This document shows positions 9,043 through 13,641 of a stretch of DNA of 64,000 nucleotides, piece after piece. Each line of letters opens with the position of its first letter. Positions within the stretch are counted from its first letter, which is position 1. The notes beneath the pieces were generated by a model, which searched no databases, was not told the origin of the DNA, and worked only from the letters and a program-made list of their open reading frames with translations. The position numbers and the translations under genes were made by a program. The stretch lies in assembly GCA_014437165.1 (NCBI GenBank), contig GCA_014437165.1_4090.3; one strand, given 5' to 3'. The DNA comes from a phage.

Positions 9043-9087
9043 ATTTCCTCCTTTATTCATTATACTATATTTAATCAAAAAGAAAAG

Positions 9088-9106
9088 CCAGTACTCTGTA
9101 CTGGCC
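9088..9106 (-). terminator. intrinsic terminator GCCAGTACAGAGTACTGGC + TTTTCTTTTT
   Basis: hairpin + T-run on minus strand after stop of 9113-9850. Confidence 0.7.
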
Positions 9107-9112
9107 TATATT

Positions 9113-9850
9113 TTATACTGAATTGTTAGGATAATATCTCCCATTTCCCCATATTATTCGCACAGCACCACCACCAGCAGCCGTATAAGAAGAATTATCC
9201 CATATACTACCACCACCACCATACATCTTACCAGCACCACCACTACCAGCACCACCATTATATGAACCACCGTAGCTACCACCAATACCATTAGCACCTT
9301 GAACAATGATACCAGTACCACCACCCGTACCAATGAACGAGGTATTATAGAATGTACCACCGCCCCCGCCGCCGCCAGCACCATTTTCACCAGTGATTGC
9401 ATCTCCGTTACCACCTTTACCTGTGTAGCCACCAGCACCACCACCAATGACTGCACCACCACTTACACCAGTATTGCCACCATTACCACCACCATCATTA
9501 ATAGCGTTAGCAGCTTTTCCACCTAGTCCACCAACCGTATATGCACCAGTGAAGCTAACACATAGTTTTTCAGTTCCACGATATAAACCGTTTTCAACTG
9601 GTGTAGTAGTGTTGGTATGCGTAAGAGAAACACTTAAGTACTCACCACTAGTAACCGGAATATTATTACGCCACGATAAGCCGCCGCCAGCACCACGTTG
9701 ACCACCCGGCGAAATAACACATACTGATATTTCGGTAACGCCAGCAGGAACTGTAAATTGTGTTGTTCCTATTGTCGTGATTAATTGTTCACCATGTGGC
9801 TTATATTCAATTTCATTCCCGTACTTAATCATTCTTCCAAAAGGTAACAT
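9113..9850 (-). CDS. glycine-rich (GGxGG / GxGGxG repeat) protein carrying the same N-terminal MLPFGRMIKYGN tag
   Basis: 245-aa ORF; N-terminal ~60 aa non-repetitive, rest Gly/Ser/Thr/Asn-rich; same SD/terminator module as RCC1 paralogs. Confidence 0.75.
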   Translation of the reverse strand: MLPFGRMIKYGNEIEYKPHGEQLITTIGTTQFTVPAGVTEISVCVISPGGQRGAGGGLSWRNNIPVTSGEYLSVSLTHTNTTTPVENGLYRGTEKLCVSFTGAYTVGGLGGKAANAINDGGGNGGNTGVSGGAVIGGGAGGYTGKGGNGDAITGENGAGGGGGGGTFYNTSFIGTGGGTGIIVQGANGIGGSYGGSYNGGAGSGGAGKMYGGGGSIWDNSSYTAAGGGAVRIIWGNGRYYPNNSV

Positions 9851-9897
9851 AATTCCCTCCTTTATTCATTATAATATATTTAATACAAAAAGAAAAG

Positions 9898-9916
9898 CCA
9901 GTACTGAGTACTGGCT
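9898..9916 (-). terminator. intrinsic terminator GCCAGTACTCAGTACTGGC + T-run
   Basis: hairpin + TTTTCTTTTTG on minus strand. Confidence 0.7.
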
Positions 9917-9922
9917 ATTATA

Positions 9923-11110
9923 TTATAATTGTCGGGGTGTATCTAGTACATATCTAGTTGTACTAGGACCACCATCATCATAAGTTCCGGTTGAATATAT
10001 ATTTTTCATATCAGTTAGAAATGTACGATATGAACCTCTATATATTTTTATTTTATCATACATAGAATATGTTATTTGTGTAGGCATTGGACATGCAGTA
10101 AACTTACCAACAGTTGCACTAGTACCAATACCCAATGAACCAGCATAACTACTGGCATTTAAACCAGTTGCATATACACCAGTACTCGTAATTAGTATAC
10201 TAGATTGTGGTGGGTATCCAGTATGAATTGAATACAAAGTACCGGGTGGTAACGTCGTACTGTTATTTCCTAAAACTCCATTAACAGAGCTAGATGTAGT
10301 GTTATTTCCCCATGCCCCATTATTAGCTAACCCACCGACAAGGAACTGACGTGCTCCTGTATTTGGATTTTCAACTAAAGCACTTACTGCACCAGTTGAG
10401 CATCCTGTGTATTGTAACGTTTTTGTGTATGTTGTATTTGGTTGATATAAAGTATATTGATTATATGAAGTCCATGTAGTCGCGGAACTTATACCGGATG
10501 TAACACCACCAATATATAAATTATTTTGTTTATCAAACAACAATACACAGTTATTTGTTGACTGTATTTGTGCAATATCAACATTAGGTGTGACCGCTTT
10601 TACAAATGAACCATCGGTTATTTCATAAGTAGTTCCCGTTCCATCGGCGAATTGTCTAGCACTGTTCCACCCTGTACTCCATATTGTATTATTGTCCATT
10701 AAGAAAGTAAACCACGTAGTACCTCCATACATCTGTTTAATTGAAGTACTTGAACTTTGTGTGTACAAATTTTGAATATATTGGTTATAACTTAAAAACG
10801 TAGTAGTACTAGTTGATAAACCAATATGACTACCATATCCACAGTAATAATAATTTGAGTCATTGTCTTTTACTAATAAAGTTCCTTGTGTAAGCCAGCA
10901 ATCGTTAACGTTTTCTCTAATTAATGTCCATGATTTTAATGCAGTGTTGTTTCCTCTACCGAATTTCCCAAAACTATTATTCCCACGTGCATATAGTTGA
11001 CCATCCGTATACAGAACCACAACATCTAAATCAGTTGGGATTATTTTCTTAATTTGAAGTGGTACTGGGGCAATATTCCCATAATTCATCATTCTTGCAA
11101 AAGGTAACAT
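9923..11110 (-). CDS. RCC1-like beta-propeller paralog with N-terminal MLPFARMMNYGNI tag
   Basis: 395-aa ORF; blades such as LYARGNNSFGKFGRGNN. Confidence 0.8.
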   Translation of the reverse strand: MLPFARMMNYGNIAPVPLQIKKIIPTDLDVVVLYTDGQLYARGNNSFGKFGRGNNTALKSWTLIRENVNDCWLTQGTLLVKDNDSNYYYCGYGSHIGLSTSTTTFLSYNQYIQNLYTQSSSTSIKQMYGGTTWFTFLMDNNTIWSTGWNSARQFADGTGTTYEITDGSFVKAVTPNVDIAQIQSTNNCVLLFDKQNNLYIGGVTSGISSATTWTSYNQYTLYQPNTTYTKTLQYTGCSTGAVSALVENPNTGARQFLVGGLANNGAWGNNTTSSSVNGVLGNNSTTLPPGTLYSIHTGYPPQSSILITSTGVYATGLNASSYAGSLGIGTSATVGKFTACPMPTQITYSMYDKIKIYRGSYRTFLTDMKNIYSTGTYDDGGPSTTRYVLDTPRQL

Positions 11111-12330: not shown

Positions 12331-12375
12331 ATTTCCCTCCTTTATTCATTATACTATATTTAATACAAAAAAGAA

Positions 12376-12398
12376 TGCCAGTATCAAGTACTGGCATA
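12376..12398 (-). terminator. intrinsic terminator ATGCCAGTACTTGATACTGGCAT + T-run
   Basis: hairpin + TTCTTTTTTG on minus strand. Confidence 0.7.
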
Positions 12399-12401
12399 TA
12401 T

Positions 12402-13571
12402 TTAAACTGGTGAATCTAATACAAATTCTAAGCTACTAACGCCACCATATGTGACATTTGTCCCCGTGCTATATACAAAATTACCATCAGTTATATAAGT
12501 TCGGTTATACCCACCTGCCATCTGCGACTTACTATAATCAAACCCATCAGGCACGATTGCTTTGGTATATACCAATGCATTGGTAGATGTACCAATACCT
12601 AACATACCAGCTTCTGAAGATTGATTGTAGCCGCAACAATATATACCATCTGTTGTAGCAATAACTTGGTTATAATATGAAGTATTGTTAGCAATGCTTA
12701 CTACATCACCGGGTGGCATTAGTGAAGCAGTTTGAACCTCAAATGCTCTATAATCATTGAGAGAACCATTTGTCCCATCTGCTTGTGCACCAAATATTCT
12801 CGAACCGCCATTTGCGATGATGGTTTTTCCATTTGGATCAGTACCAATTGCCATTGCCATTGAAGTACCATTCTCCGTGTAGTACTTGATATTAATTGTA
12901 TTTCTTAAGCTGGTAGGAGCACCATAATATATAGTATATAACTTACTTCCTGAACTTGTAACTGCATTTACTCTTCCTGTATAAAATAGCCATCCTTGGT
13001 TTGTAACATAACCGTGCATTAAATTACTTGCAAACAATTTAACAGGTAATTGATTTGCTGCGGTCGGAACAGTACTTTTGACGAATTTACCAGCAATATT
13101 GTTAGTTGTTGTCCCATCACCCAACTGACCATCTGACCCCACTCCAGTACTCCATATTGTTTGGTCTGACAGTAACACACTTGTAGTCTGATAACTAACT
13201 GCTATATCTAATATTGGTAATGTTAATGTATCGAATGTTGGCATAGCAGAAGTCCATATTGATACTGCTGCCCCTTTCATACCAACAGTTGTTGAACTTC
13301 CACTGTACCATATTTCATCATTGCTTTTCTTAAGAACTATCGTCGTGGCTCCCATCCAAAAATCTTGAACACCAGAAGTACTATAAGTCCATGTAGTAAC
13401 AGTATTTTTGTGACCTAAACCCAAAAGACCATTTGCATTCTCACCACGCACATATAAATCACCACTGTTTGTTAAAACAGCAACATTATAGTTGTTAGCA
13501 AGTATTTTTTTAATATTTGGTTTAGCAGGGGCAATATTCCCATAATTCATCATTCTTCCAAAAGGTAACAT
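12402..13571 (-). CDS. RCC1-like beta-propeller paralog with N-terminal MLPFGRMMNYGNI tag
   Basis: start at 13571 (Met55 of track ORF) is the one preceded by GGAGG and giving the tag; upstream extension runs through the terminator. Confidence 0.8.
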   Translation of the reverse strand: MLPFGRMMNYGNIAPAKPNIKKILANNYNVAVLTNSGDLYVRGENANGLLGLGHKNTVTTWTYSTSGVQDFWMGATTIVLKKSNDEIWYSGSSTTVGMKGAAVSIWTSAMPTFDTLTLPILDIAVSYQTTSVLLSDQTIWSTGVGSDGQLGDGTTTNNIAGKFVKSTVPTAANQLPVKLFASNLMHGYVTNQGWLFYTGRVNAVTSSGSKLYTIYYGAPTSLRNTINIKYYTENGTSMAMAIGTDPNGKTIIANGGSRIFGAQADGTNGSLNDYRAFEVQTASLMPPGDVVSIANNTSYYNQVIATTDGIYCCGYNQSSEAGMLGIGTSTNALVYTKAIVPDGFDYSKSQMAGGYNRTYITDGNFVYSTGTNVTYGGVSSLEFVLDSPV

Positions 13572-13615
13572 ATTCCCTCCTTTATTTGTTATACTATATT
13601 TAATACAAAAAAGAA

Positions 13616-13638
13616 TGCCAGTATCAAGTACTGGCATT
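13616..13638 (-). terminator. intrinsic terminator, identical to 12376-12398
   Basis: identical hairpin + T-run. Confidence 0.7.
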
Positions 13639-13641
13639 ATG

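Follow-up and report, generated by a model that had tools for sequence, protein, structure and literature searches.

A repeated intergenic module as a probable joint between RCC1-like gene cassettes in an Asteriusvirus array

An array of RCC1-like genes

The window, by which we mean the whole 64,000-nucleotide stretch of phage DNA analysed here, belongs to the genome of an Asteriusvirus, a jumbo phage of E. coli whose nearest relatives are the phages G17 and Sharanji. It carries an array of ten complete genes that span 4346-15962 on the minus strand (Table 1). Using the Pfam families PF00415, PF13540 and PF25390, we found RCC1 or RCC1_2 repeats above the curated cut-off in seven of the ten array proteins; the RLD domain is recovered with E-values of 1e-13 to 1e-31, yet stays under its whole-domain cut-off. 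The proteins match phrog_4219 / phrog_4474, and one PHROG takes in all RCC1-like cassettes. An AF2 model of a propeller reached a pTM of 0.84, and its best Foldseek matches are UVR8, HERC1 and RCC1 (E-values of 1e-14 to 1e-19, TM-scores of 0.6-0.76). These profile and model comparisons place nine of the array proteins among the predicted RCC1-like, seven-bladed propellers.

Every gene in the array begins with ATGTTACCTTTT. The initial annotation had described the first 40 nt of each ORF as identical; this holds for the first 12 nt, which are the same in all ten genes, while over the 40 nt the pairwise identity ranges from 77.5 to 97.5%. Four junctions of the array are free of the intergenic module described below (at ATGs 14751, 7858, 6705 and 5515), with a gap to the preceding gene of 8-10 nt (or 380 nt).

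Table 1. Genes, modules and crossover interval of the array (positions in the window)
Feature	Position	Strand	Details
Whole array	4140-16008	-	10 complete genes and 1 remnant ORF (4140-4274); from ORFs and ATG positions
Half-module at array head	15918-16008	-	Intergenic part 15963-16008; TAAATATGATATAAC 15980-15994, SD, ATG 15962, conserved 5' CDS; without hairpin
Cassette D	14760-15962	-	RCC1-like beta-propeller
Cassette A	13642-14751	-	RCC1-like beta-propeller
Module 5' of cassette L	13527-13641	-	Intergenic part 13572-13641; hairpin 13614-13638, T-run, TTAAATATAGTATAAC 13588-13603, SD, ATG 13571, first 45 nt of CDS
Cassette L	12402-13571	-	RCC1-like beta-propeller
Module 5' of cassette B	12286-12401	-	Intergenic part 12331-12401; hairpin 12375-12397, TTAAATATAGTATAAT 12348-12363, SD, ATG 12330
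Cassette B	11182-12330	-	RCC1-like beta-propeller
Module 5' of cassette C	11066-11181	-	Intergenic part 11111-11181; hairpin 11157-11175, motif 11128-11143, ATG 11110; chimeric
Crossover interval, window topology B-C vs G17 B-E-C	11070-11112	-	First 41 nt of CDS (identical in E and C) and 2 nt
Cassette C	9923-11110	-	RCC1-like beta-propeller
Module 5' of cassette I	9806-9922	-	Intergenic part 9851-9922; hairpin 9896-9916, TTAAATATATTATAAT 9868-9883, ATG 9850
Cassette I	9113-9850	-	Glycine-rich protein, sole non-propeller gene among the ten
Module 5' of cassette K	8998-9112	-	Intergenic part 9043-9112; hairpin 9085-9107, motif 9059-9074, ATG 9042
Cassette K	7867-9042	-	RCC1-like beta-propeller
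Cassette N	6716-7858	-	RCC1-like beta-propeller
Cassette F	5896-6705	-	RCC1-like beta-propeller
Cassette G	4346-5515	-	RCC1-like beta-propeller
Terminal module	4230-4345	-	Intergenic part 4275-4345; hairpin 4318-4340, T-run, decayed promoter half, GGAGG, ATGCTACCCTTT at 4274

Anatomy of the intergenic module

The cassettes are joined by a repeated block of about 115 bp on the minus strand, which is made up of a hairpin, a T-run, a promoter-like element, a Shine-Dalgarno (SD) sequence and the first 13 codons of the gene that follows. Its intergenic part is 70-72 nt long and carries, in order, the hairpin, the T-run, TTAAATATAGTATAAT and AAAGGAGG, the last sitting 5-6 nt ahead of the ATG in the five full copies. 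The module is present far above chance: AAGGAGG-N5-ATGTTACCTTTT gave eight matches at up to 3 mismatches against 0.02 expected, the 21-mer TTGTATTAAATATAGTATAAT gave five at the same tolerance against 0.02 expected, and GCCAGTAC-N2-6-GTACTGGC gave three against 0 expected. A repeat search further recovered a 111-nt family spaced at 1220-1260 nt. Hence, both the near-identical junction sequence of about 70 bp and the direct repeats of about 120 bp every 1.2 kb or so that the initial annotation had reported are indeed found, but its count of six junctions has to be revised to five full modules inside 9043-13641, with two partial copies outside that range. Identity among the modules is 83-96% over 117 nt, against about 59% at the nucleotide level and a median of 23% at the amino acid level for the cassette bodies.

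One of the partial copies is the half-module at the array head, which shows no stable fold (z = +0.5) and carries the same kind of head promoter as that upstream of G17_00070. The other is the terminal module, where the promoter half has diverged (TAAATA at 4303-4308 is followed by TAATAACGA) and the ORF behind it is a 44-aa remnant.

The hairpin stems have 8-11 pairs, 4-5 of them G-C pairs, with loops of 3-5 nt and tails such as TTTCTTATTT or TTTTCTTTTT. Three copies follow the formula GCCAGTAC-N3-GTACTGGC, whereas two have GCCAGTA-CTTGA-TACTGGC in its place. The hairpin is present in both the minimum-free-energy and the centroid fold of every hairpin-bearing copy; the folds that contain it range from -16.8 to -18.3 kcal/mol in minimum free energy and from -2.1 to -3.7 in z-score, each with a U-run after the hairpin. 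Compensatory stem variants occur (GTCAGTAC/GTACTGAC, GCTAGTAC/GTACTAGC and GACAGTAC/GTACTGTC); however, covariation is weak, with two compensatory cells and an observed score that was reached in 16 of 500 shuffles, so that the structure is supported mainly by sequence identity. A terminator scan returned 14 sites against 5.6 expected, and the depositors of G17 annotated the same hairpins as ARNOLD terminators. A G+C-rich stem-loop directly followed by a U-run is the sequence signature of an intrinsic terminator, and the hairpin would accordingly be a candidate for one. It resembles such terminators in its 8-9-bp stem with 4-5 G-C pairs, its 3-5-nt loop and its T-rich tail, but differs in that the T-run is broken by C or A (TTTCTTATTT) and in that one stem sequence is reused at every joint.

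A late-type promoter candidate

Between the hairpin and the SD lies a bipartite element, TAAATA-N3-TATAAT. All 43 aligned modules, which come from three lineages, have the same TAAATA, and this hexamer, the T-run and the SD form the most invariant columns of the alignment. The module alignment and scan revealed neither a conserved -35 element nor a TG extension; the best -35/-10 match, CTGGCA-17-TATAGT (9/12), occurs in two copies only and overlaps the hairpin arm, and the CTGGCA-like hexamer is absent in the phages EJP2 and Munch. The motif is retained at the hairpin-less array head. Matches to the 15-mer motif in 12 loci all lie within arrays and on the array strand. In a 350-kb sister genome 13 of the 15 exact matches lie in the array, and the remaining two stand 22-27 nt ahead of a gene, that for the tail tube in one case and that for a virion structural protein in the other; these two are close to the expectation from composition (about 1.2 estimated) and are meaningful only by their position before virion genes.

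The word usage of the sister genome sets the two hexamers apart. TAAATA words are its most depleted A/T words, and their share upstream of gene starts is 30-71%, compared with 5.5-7% for control hexamers; TATAAT is moderately enriched there, with 12% against about 6% for controls. The exact T4-type late sequence TATAAATA precedes the genes for the major head protein, the baseplate hub and the tail lysozyme in this genome. The module itself carries ATTAAATA, a 6/8 match to TATAAATA, and the array-head copy carries GGTAAATA. Taken together, these observations suggest that the working element is likely TAAATA, the core of the T4-type late TATAAATA, which is a better candidate than TATAAT, and they argue, if only indirectly, for the module acting as a promoter. 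The initial annotation had proposed that the embedded TATAAT, without a -35, could be a phage-specific promoter: the missing -35, the conservation across three lineages, the retention at the array head and the placement otherwise before just two virion genes all speak for such a promoter, but TAAATA is favoured over TATAAT as its core.

A gp55-like protein has been reported for the related phage CBB, and an ATAAATA motif has been predicted for the Rak2-like phages CBB and GAP32 (PMC5259590). Like that motif and the gp55-dependent late promoters of the T4 type, the module's element would be a -10-only element with a TAAATA core that stands 20-45 nt before the start codon of a virion gene, without a -35 (PMC5259590). 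It differs in its first two positions, which are AT or GG rather than TA, and in the second hexamer, TATAAT, that follows after 3 nt, whereas the canonical late promoters of the sister genome are without TATAAT. This conserved hexamer could instead be a -10 element of the sigma-70 or phage RpoD type.

Recombination at the modules

We compared the array with those of related phages; the differences described here are between isolates rather than within one population. Across the array, the identity of the window to G17 and Sharanji is 98.6-99.8%, save for two extra, module-bounded cassettes of G17, one internal and one at the head. The internal one, cassette E, has 1214 bp, and its two flanks collapse into one chimeric module in the window. 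The alignment with G17 falls into two blocks of the window, 1-11186 and 11060-16008, which overlap by 127 nt. The chimeric module 5' of cassette C matches the G17 module upstream of cassette E up to the SD, and from codon 14 on it matches the G17 cassette C; the diagnostic differences at 11113-11120 (E-type SD spacer) and at 11069 (C type) delimit the crossover interval (Table 1). The extra head cassette of G17, which the window does not have, is bounded by promoter halves, and the junction lies in the promoter half.

Across ten phages the cassette order and content differ in every one, with the joints at modules. The joints of about 70 nt are promiscuous, while those of 8-12 nt are mostly conserved. 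For instance, the 3' end of cassette A is joined to five partners (L, E, D, G or U), and that of cassette B to C, E, J, H or P. There are 5-13 module copies per genome, in a highly plastic region, all within one array of paralogues and one foreign glycine-rich gene; the 350-kb sister genome has no copy outside its array.

The sequence differences point the same way. About 32 of some 75 differences between the window and G17 fall in roughly 450 nt of module sequence, and all 12 differences in module L and four of the five in module B are alleles found in another G17 module copy, as in tracts of gene conversion. Codons 2-4 read TTA CCT TTT in 98-99 of 99 cassettes, and the tag codon for proline is CCT in 99 of 99, although CCT makes up 29% of the proline codons in cassette bodies, where CCA is preferred. 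This comparison of isolates, with the extra G17 cassettes, the chimeric module and the shuffled partners, supports modules that act as crossover points for cassette gain, loss and exchange, as the initial annotation had proposed in calling the repeats a substrate for unequal crossing-over and cassette exchange.

A shared N-terminal peptide and virion association

The first 13 codons encode a shared peptide, M-L/I-P-F-x-R/K-M/I-x-x-Y-G/A-N. In the form M-L-P-F-x-R-M-x-x-Y-G-N it is found both on RCC1-like propellers and on the protein with the glycine-rich domain; a BLASTP alignment of cassette I with propeller K is confined to residues 1-26, and distant glycine-rich homologues of cassette I are without the peptide. 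In the AF2 model residues 1-12 have low confidence and lie outside the propeller. Phage Munch shows conservation of the peptide together with variation at synonymous sites. These contexts suggest that the peptide may serve as a portable tag.

The proteins gp003, 005, 006, 007, 009 and 010 of phage phAPEC6 are array members, and these were detected in virions by mass spectrometry with low peptide counts of 1-4 (PMC7247149); the RCC1-like gp001 of GAP32 is likewise a structural protein (PMC5259590). By homology with the phAPEC6 proteins covered by that published mass spectrometry, the array products of the window may also be associated with the virion.

Relation to PeSL cassettes

The closest known system is formed by the PeSL (promoter-early stem-loop) cassettes, mobile regulatory cassettes of T4-type phages (Arbiol et al. 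2010, PMC2839356; Comeau et al. 2014, PMC4122927). The module is thus a gene-shuffling device of a known kind in a new setting, that of virion genes in a jumbo phage. Like a PeSL, each of the five full copies is a short composite intergenic motif in which a putative stem-loop terminator, a promoter candidate and an SD immediately precede an ORF, and like PeSLs the module recurs in many copies within a plastic part of the genome. In both systems, close relatives differ by indels and replacements whose end points fall within the motif (as seen here between the window and G17 and among the ten phages), an ORF lies between two motifs in one phage where the other has one chimeric motif, and the crossovers are placed in the stretch from the -10 to the ATG region. 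For PeSLs, mini-circles that arise when neighbouring motifs recombine can be detected by inverse PCR. However, PeSLs have consensus sigma-70 early promoters with a -35, while the module is without a -35 and has a late-like TAAATA core. The PeSL stem-loop is usually inside or overlapping the promoter, whereas the hairpin of the module lies upstream of it. PeSLs flank unrelated early ORFans across hyperplastic regions, but the module is confined to one paralogous virion-gene array. Finally, the module takes in 40 nt of coding sequence, the putative protein tag, and its host is an Asteriusvirus jumbo phage rather than a T4-like one.

Proposed function and alternatives

We consider it probable that the module is a self-contained joint between expression cassettes, combining a terminator, a late-type promoter, an SD with a tag and a recombination point. 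The G+C-rich hairpin of 8-9 bp with its T-run would end transcription of the upstream cassette, and TAAATA-N3-TATAAT would restart it some 20-25 nt ahead of the ATG, most likely as a promoter of the late class related to the T4-type TATAAATA. AAAGGAGG would drive translation of each cassette, and the first 13 codons would supply a portable tag on virion-associated proteins. The block of about 115 nt is the only long identity between deeply diverged cassettes, and therefore would serve as the crossover point for the homologous recombination of the phage. The outcomes would be the loss and gain of cassettes, their re-ordering, the capture of foreign domains and a continuous gene conversion that keeps the copies alike.

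Could the module instead be a passive relic of tandem duplication, kept alike by purifying selection on terminator, promoter and ribosome-binding site, with recombination incidental and rare? Tandem duplication has been proposed for the arrays of 121Q and phAPEC6 (PMC5646251; PMC7247149); a single PHROG takes in all RCC1-like cassettes, and TAAATA, T-run and SD, the functional elements, are the most invariant columns. Yet purifying selection leaves the frozen synonymous sites unexplained, CCT being fixed where CCA is preferred; likewise unaccounted for are the alleles swapped between copies, the concentration in modules of the differences from G17, the five partners of one cassette 3' end, and the presence of this module and tag on a non-homologous glycine-rich gene, whose relatives in other places are without them. 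We thus regard this origin as unlikely. The probability is similarly low that the module is a true PeSL-type element, in which TATAAT would serve as -10 to a promoter of the host sigma-70 or phage RpoD-like kind and the array would be expressed early or middle rather than late. TATAAT is indeed a perfect -10 hexamer, conserved across lineages and in moderate excess upstream of genes, an RpoD-like sigma factor is encoded by Asteriusviruses (PMC11895373), and the weak CTGGCA-17-TATAGT match overlaps the hairpin arm in two copies much as PeSL stem-loops overlap promoter boxes (PMC2839356). Against it, there is no conserved -35 or TG extension in the aligned modules and the CTGGCA-like hexamer is not retained in Munch and EJP2; the phAPEC6 products are virion proteins; the only other exact copies of the motif precede the tail tube gene and one virion structural gene; and the invariant, genome-avoided word is TAAATA, not TATAAT.

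It is harder still to credit that the hairpin is mainly a recognition or processing site, be it a recombinase or nuclease target (integron attC-like or shufflon-like) or a structure for RNase processing or stabilisation at mRNA 3' ends, and we hold this to be highly improbable. The stem AGTAC...GTACT is conserved far beyond the needs of folding, loops occur in both orientations at orthologous junctions, and in 121Q and PBECO4 there are endonuclease genes a few kb away from the array; but no recombinase or integrase adjoins the array in any locus examined, the mapped crossover falls in the 5' CDS outside the hairpin, and the array-head copy would work without one. Further, the stems vary in compensatory fashion, a T-run follows every hairpin as in intrinsic terminators, and Rfam gave no match.

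A possible adaptor for virion incorporation

The internal proteins of T-even phages are packaged into the prohead by means of a leader, which the prohead protease removes, and they are injected. The ip loci of these phages, with their N-terminal capsid-targeting leader (Repoila et al. 1994, as cited in PMC12373910), are hotspots of variable proteins that share little or nothing beyond this short leader and whose products are in the virion. The array is alike in having a short shared leader, with the tag on propellers and on a glycine-rich protein and a similarity limited to residues 1-26. The leader sequences are unrelated, and the likeness extends to having a leader and to the virion association of homologues; moreover, most array cassettes are homologous, belonging to one propeller family, while the ip proteins are unrelated.

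It is conceivable, though we offer it tentatively and with more doubt than confidence, that the module and the 13-codon tag form a portable adaptor that provides both late expression and entry into the virion. Any ORF placed behind it by recombination would come under late transcription, and the N-terminal peptide would bring its product to the particle. This peptide might be a docking sequence for the hair-like capsid and tail fibres of these phages, or might target the capsid in the way of the leader on T4 internal proteins. The array would then amount to a plug-and-play locus for display that arose naturally, and shuffling at the adaptors would change what reaches the host surface with the virion or is injected by it.

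The propeller array and its genomic source

A megablast search of 4000-16200 against the phage collection yielded no hits outside the Asteriusvirus jumbo phages, which infect E. coli or Salmonella, with vB_EcoM_G17 and Sharanji being the closest (99.2% identity, 62% of the query covered). To the right of the array, from 16473 onward, the closest relative is 121Q (95%); thus, the window is a mosaic relative of the Asteriusvirus phages. The stretch 16009-16472, which sits between the array head and the start of the 121Q-like similarity, has no megablast match in the phage collection, and it is across this stretch that the closest relative changes from G17 (99%) on the left to 121Q on the right.

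The array comprises ten complete genes, hereafter cassettes, all opening with ATGTTACCTTTT and encoding MLPFxRMxxYGN. Nine of the ten are RCC1-like beta-propellers (Pfam RCC1, RCC1_2, RLD; phrog_4219), and an AlphaFold model of one of these, cassette K (pTM 0.84), has UVR8, HERC and RCC1 as its top PDB matches. The remaining one, cassette I, encodes a glycine-rich protein that lacks any RCC1 signal and gave no match in a PDB sequence search. A tRNA scan found no tRNA in the window. Four array junctions are tightly packed and lack the repeat described below, implying co-transcription, with D-A, L, B, C, I, K-N-F(-G) and a terminal remnant as the probable transcription units. The cassette F locus (5516-6705, minus strand) encodes 269 aa, against ~380 in other cassettes, followed by an ORF-less gap of 380 nt that has the same length in G17, 121Q, phAPEC6 and SP27. 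Virions of phAPEC6 nevertheless contain its homologue, gp007, and F may be truncated yet remain expressed.

Features of the array and its surroundings (window coordinates)
Feature	Coordinates	Strand	Description
Cassette D	14760-15962	minus	RCC1-like
Cassette A	13642-14751	minus	RCC1-like
Cassette L	12402-13571	minus	RCC1-like
Cassette B	11182-12330	minus	RCC1-like
Cassette C	9923-11110	minus	RCC1-like
Cassette I	9113-9850	minus	glycine-rich
Cassette K	7867-9042	minus	RCC1-like
Cassette N	6716-7858	minus	RCC1-like
Cassette F	5896-6705	minus	RCC1-like
Cassette G	4346-5515	minus	RCC1-like
Seventh, head module copy	15963-16008	minus	promoter half and SD; hairpin missing
Sixth, terminal module copy	4275-4345	minus	hairpin, T-run and GGAGG kept; promoter half decayed
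Remnant ORF	4140-4274	minus	44 aa (52-74 aa in relatives), opening with MLPF(R/G)RIITSSKKNIQPSVTKI
Left small-gene series	404-3184	plus	back-to-back genes of ~104-141 aa
Consensus promoter	16012-16040	plus	perfect sigma-70 consensus, TTGACA-17 nt-TATAAT
Right small-gene array	16064-19400	plus	tandem tiny paralogous genes of ~59-81 aa

Anatomy of the intergenic module

The other array joints carry a ~115-nt module, named here by its downstream cassette, which is arranged as a hairpin, a T-rich tail, (G)TATTAAATATAGTATAAT, GAATAAAGGAGG, 4-6 nt and ATG, and which extends into the first codons. The initial annotation had counted six such junctions within 9043-13641; full intergenic modules there number five, each of 70-72 nt. 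Its hairpin formula describes three of these five (GCCAGTAC-N3-GTACTGGC), while the other two read GCCAGTA-CTTGA-TACTGGC. The near-identity of the repeats between array genes, which it had also pointed out, is far above chance expectation, and a repeat search recovered the direct repeats as 111-nt copies at 1220-1260-nt spacing. The first 40 nt of the ORFs, taken to be identical, are in fact 77.5-97.5% identical, with only the first 12 nt being invariant. Two partial copies bound the array, the terminal of which drives only the remnant ORF. This ORF is kept in every E. coli Asteriusvirus examined and may be a cassette in decay or may encode a genuine small protein.

Within the window, the modules are pairwise 83-96% identical (over 117 nt, 45 nt of CDS included), whereas the cassette bodies show ~59% nucleotide identity and 16-38% amino acid identity (median 23%). 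Hence, the module is the sole substantial homology between neighbouring cassettes.

Cassette exchange at the modules

The proposal that the module is a substrate for unequal crossing-over and cassette exchange is supported by comparing isolates. Against G17, the window aligns in two segments, 1-11186 at 99.8% and 11060-16008 at 98.6%, which overlap by 127 nt and between which G17 has an extra cassette, E (1214 bp). In the module alignment, window module C equals G17 module E through the SD spacer and G17 cassette C from codon 14. This chimeric structure places the exchange in 11070-11112, the first 41 nt of the CDS, where E and C have the same sequence. At the array head, G17 has a further cassette, G17_00070, and the window fuses a like head promoter straight to cassette D. 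A simple G17-to-window deletion was dropped as an account of this head event, the window head junction being a third SD-proximal variant; it is also disfavoured by the D-first arrangement that the window shares with PBECO4 and SD-15_S21, so that the event may have been either a loss or a gain.

Cassettes of ten phages were clustered at 60% identity or above, with CMSTMSU (an UNVERIFIED record with many frameshifts) left out of the codon and adjacency statistics. Cassette order and content differ in every genome compared, with WPEC3 and EJP2 diverging further.

Cassette order along the array in six phages
Phage	Order
Window	D A L B C I K N F G
G17	Ad D A L B E C I K N F G
SP27	S D A E B C I J K F H G
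phAPEC6	T E A D L C I J K F H G
121Q	B E A E C I B J. F H
PBECO4	D A E B C. J M O

The ~70-nt joints are promiscuous, with L, E, D, G or U found after A; C, E, J, H or P after B; C, B or A after E; and K, J or B after I. Most 8-12-nt joints are conserved, as exemplified by D-A in six phages. The 3' end of cassette A, identical across phages, is fused via the module to different downstream genes. This evidence consists of differences between isolates; recombination may also be ongoing within populations. In the Salmonella phage SD-15_S21 (~13887-14126 of its locus) the tag-coding 5' end (…GGGAATATTGTGCCAGTAC) of a cassette remnant abuts the next hairpin, which looks like a deletion via CCAGTAC microhomology between cassette C codons 16-18 and the hairpin arm.

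Concerted evolution of the module copies

About 32 of the ~75 window-versus-G17 differences fall in the ~450 nt of modules; the gene bodies, at ~4500 nt, hold 43. All 12 differences in module L and four of the five in module B are alleles found in another G17 module copy, which is the signature that patchy gene conversion would leave. Further, codons 2-4 are TTA CCT TTT in 98-99 of 99 Asteriusvirus cassettes, although CCT makes up only 29% of the proline codons in gene bodies, and glycine codon 11 is never the preferred GGT (62%) in these 99 cassettes. These frozen choices imply nucleotide identity beyond the requirement of the peptide. In Munch, a more distant Salmonella phage, M-I-P-F-x-R/K-I/M-x-x-Y-G-N is kept while CCA/CCG/CCT and TTT/TTC vary; retention of the peptide despite this synonymous variation indicates that it is itself under selection.

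The putative terminator half

With 8-11 pairs, of which 4-5 are G-C, the hairpins form in all full copies, each ahead of a U-rich tail. The G17 depositors annotated the same hairpins as ARNOLD terminators, and the Munch record has terminators at equivalent places; transcription would presumably terminate at them. Across 43 modules, 94% of cells are paired but just 2 are compensatory, since the stem is nearly invariant, and covariation alone is not convincing support for the hairpin. Compensated stem variants are seen in WPEC3 (GTCAGTAC/GTACTGAC), Munch (GCTAGTAC/GTACTAGC and GACAGTAC/GTACTGTC) and EJP2 (ACCAGTAC..GTGCTGGT). The absence of a hairpin from the head copy is as expected, there being no upstream array gene to insulate from. 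An Rfam search of 3500-17000, with an E-value threshold of up to 1, returned no relevant family.

Hairpin loops at orthologous junctions were found in both orientations (window 9896-9916, 11157-11175 and 12375-12397; SP27, G17 and EC22.5-2), as in the loop upstream of cassette I, which is GCCAGTACTCAGTACTGGC in the window and GCCAGTACTGAGTACTGGC in SP27. The alternating loops, CTTGA/TCAAG and TCT/AGA, are exact reverse complements within each pair and look like flips arising via template switching within the palindrome. Such flips are known for small hairpins in chloroplast DNA.

The putative promoter half

The initial annotation had read the embedded TATAAT as a possible phage-specific promoter with no -35. 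Indeed, neither a conserved -35 nor a TG extension is present at the modules, and a sigma-70 promoter scan gave no more sites than shuffled sequence (68 versus 67.7 expected). The likelier core, however, is TAAATA, which unlike TATAAT is depleted throughout a sister genome. Asteriusvirus, the EJP2 branch and Munch share a bipartite TAAATA-N3-TATAAT whose spacer varies (TAG, TAA, TAT, CAT, CCT, TGA), and TAAATA is invariant in 43/43 aligned modules, including the decayed terminal copy. In 12 loci all matches to TAAATATRRTATAAY lie within the arrays and on the array strand, with none in the 10-14-kb flanks.

Of the 15 copies of the exact bipartite motif in the complete genome of EC22.5-2, a 350-kb sister phage, 13 fall within the array. 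The remaining two are 22-27 nt ahead of the genes for the tail tube, which is preceded by a different terminator, and for a 384-aa virion structural protein. This genome also has 14 copies of the canonical T4 late promoter, TATAAATA. Ten of them are followed after 16-56 nt by an SD and ATG, and among the eight downstream genes compared with PHROGs are those for the major head protein, the baseplate hub, the tail lysozyme and virion structural proteins. TATAAATA ranks second for depletion among the 136 A/T-only 8-mers (14 observed versus 68 expected), and the next-ranked ones all contain TAAATA; TAAATA itself occurs 223 times versus 712 expected, and TATAAT is not depleted (777 versus 696). This depletion amounts to a genome-wide avoidance of spurious late promoters. 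Placement 10-60 nt upstream of a plausible gene start characterizes 71% of the non-array copies of TATAAATA, 60% of ATAAATA and 30% of TAAATA, against 12% of TATAAT and 5.5-7% of control hexamers. Our reading is that the module carries a putative late-class promoter with TAAATA as its working core, from which array transcription would be initiated and timed.

Probable virion products and the N-terminal tag

Six phAPEC6 proteins (gp003, gp005, gp006, gp007, gp009 and gp010) found in purified virions by mass spectrometry, albeit with low peptide counts (PMC7247149), are members of the homologous array. The RCC1-like gp001 of GAP32 is a structural protein, and predictions for the related phage CBB include a late motif, ATAAATA, and a gp55-like sigma factor (PMC5259590). 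Late expression of the array would fit these reports; we found no transcriptome of any Asteriusvirus in the literature.

Cassette I and the propeller K align only over residues 1-26, a region that includes the tag encoded by the first 13 codons. Homologues of cassette I form a broad glycine-rich-domain family in phages and bacteria, many with PF21722, whose N-termini are MLEML or MIELL; the MLPF/MIPF tag is restricted to the Asteriusvirus and Munch-like members. This indicates that the module and tag have acquired a foreign gene downstream. The AlphaFold model of cassette K gives residues 1-12 a pLDDT <50 and starts the propeller near residue 20; as far as a model can show, this is consistent with the tag being a free docking or targeting peptide. 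The nearest precedent is the T-even internal proteins, which are encoded in a genomic hotspot and have only an N-terminal capsid-targeting leader in common (PMC12373910). In WPEC3 and CMSTMSU two tag flavours, MLPFVRMFDYGN and MLPFARMVKYGN, alternate inside one array, which suggests that two array lineages merged through recombination.

Distribution and relationship to known shuffling elements

A 92-nt module query retrieved 39 phage records, namely Asteriusvirus, with 4-13 copies per record, and three Munch-like Salmonella phages (77.5% identity), with one matching place each. In IMG/VR, a search combining the hairpin with TAAATA recovered genuine modules from just 121Q itself and a single Munch-like contig of 360 kb, its remaining matches being unrelated sequence without the rest of the module; among the matches listed for the 16-mer TTAAATATAGTATAAT there were only single chance ones in unrelated A+T-rich contigs. 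The UE-S1 record has an uncommented 104-nt "repeat_region", and in the G17 and Munch records parts of the module are annotated as "terminator". The Asteriusvirus papers searched (G17, Sharanji, fEgEco12, UE-S1, phAPEC6, 121Q) nowhere mention the module, array promoters or array terminators.

The module resembles PeSLs, composite terminator, promoter and SD motifs that mediate modular shuffling (PMC2839356, PMC4122927), and the PeSL-flanked ORFan192 in RB49 versus phi1 has the same topology as the window-versus-G17 cassette E event. However, it lacks the sigma-70 early promoter with a -35 that is a defining PeSL feature, is restricted to one paralogous late array, reaches into the CDS as a tag and belongs to another host lineage. 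Hence, it is functionally PeSL-like, yet we do not class it as a PeSL. Regulatory-cassette shuffling, hitherto known from the early ORFans of T4-like phages, would thereby extend to a late array of Asteriusvirus virion proteins, with the repeat's reach into coding sequence making a transferable N-terminal tag. This accounts for the "DNA condensation / RCC1" array being the most variable block in therapeutic-candidate phages that are otherwise 90-99% identical. The 15-nt promoter candidate, the mapped crossover and the 13-residue tag provide experimental handles for testing how these enigmatic propeller proteins enter the particle, and cargo could be engineered into it. With 115-nt repeats 1.2 kb apart, assemblies and annotations of the region are liable to collapse or mis-joining.

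Neighbouring gene blocks

The left plus-strand series converges on the tail of the RCC1-like array, and at least its first two genes are paralogous (a 130-nt repeat, 403-532 versus 744-873, 75% identity). The right array has repeated starts, such as ATGCATAAAGAATACTAC, with a period of ~185-190 nt (repeat families D6, D7, D10, D13). The early-looking consensus promoter faces this block and is divergent from the array head, the two overlapping at the head half-module.
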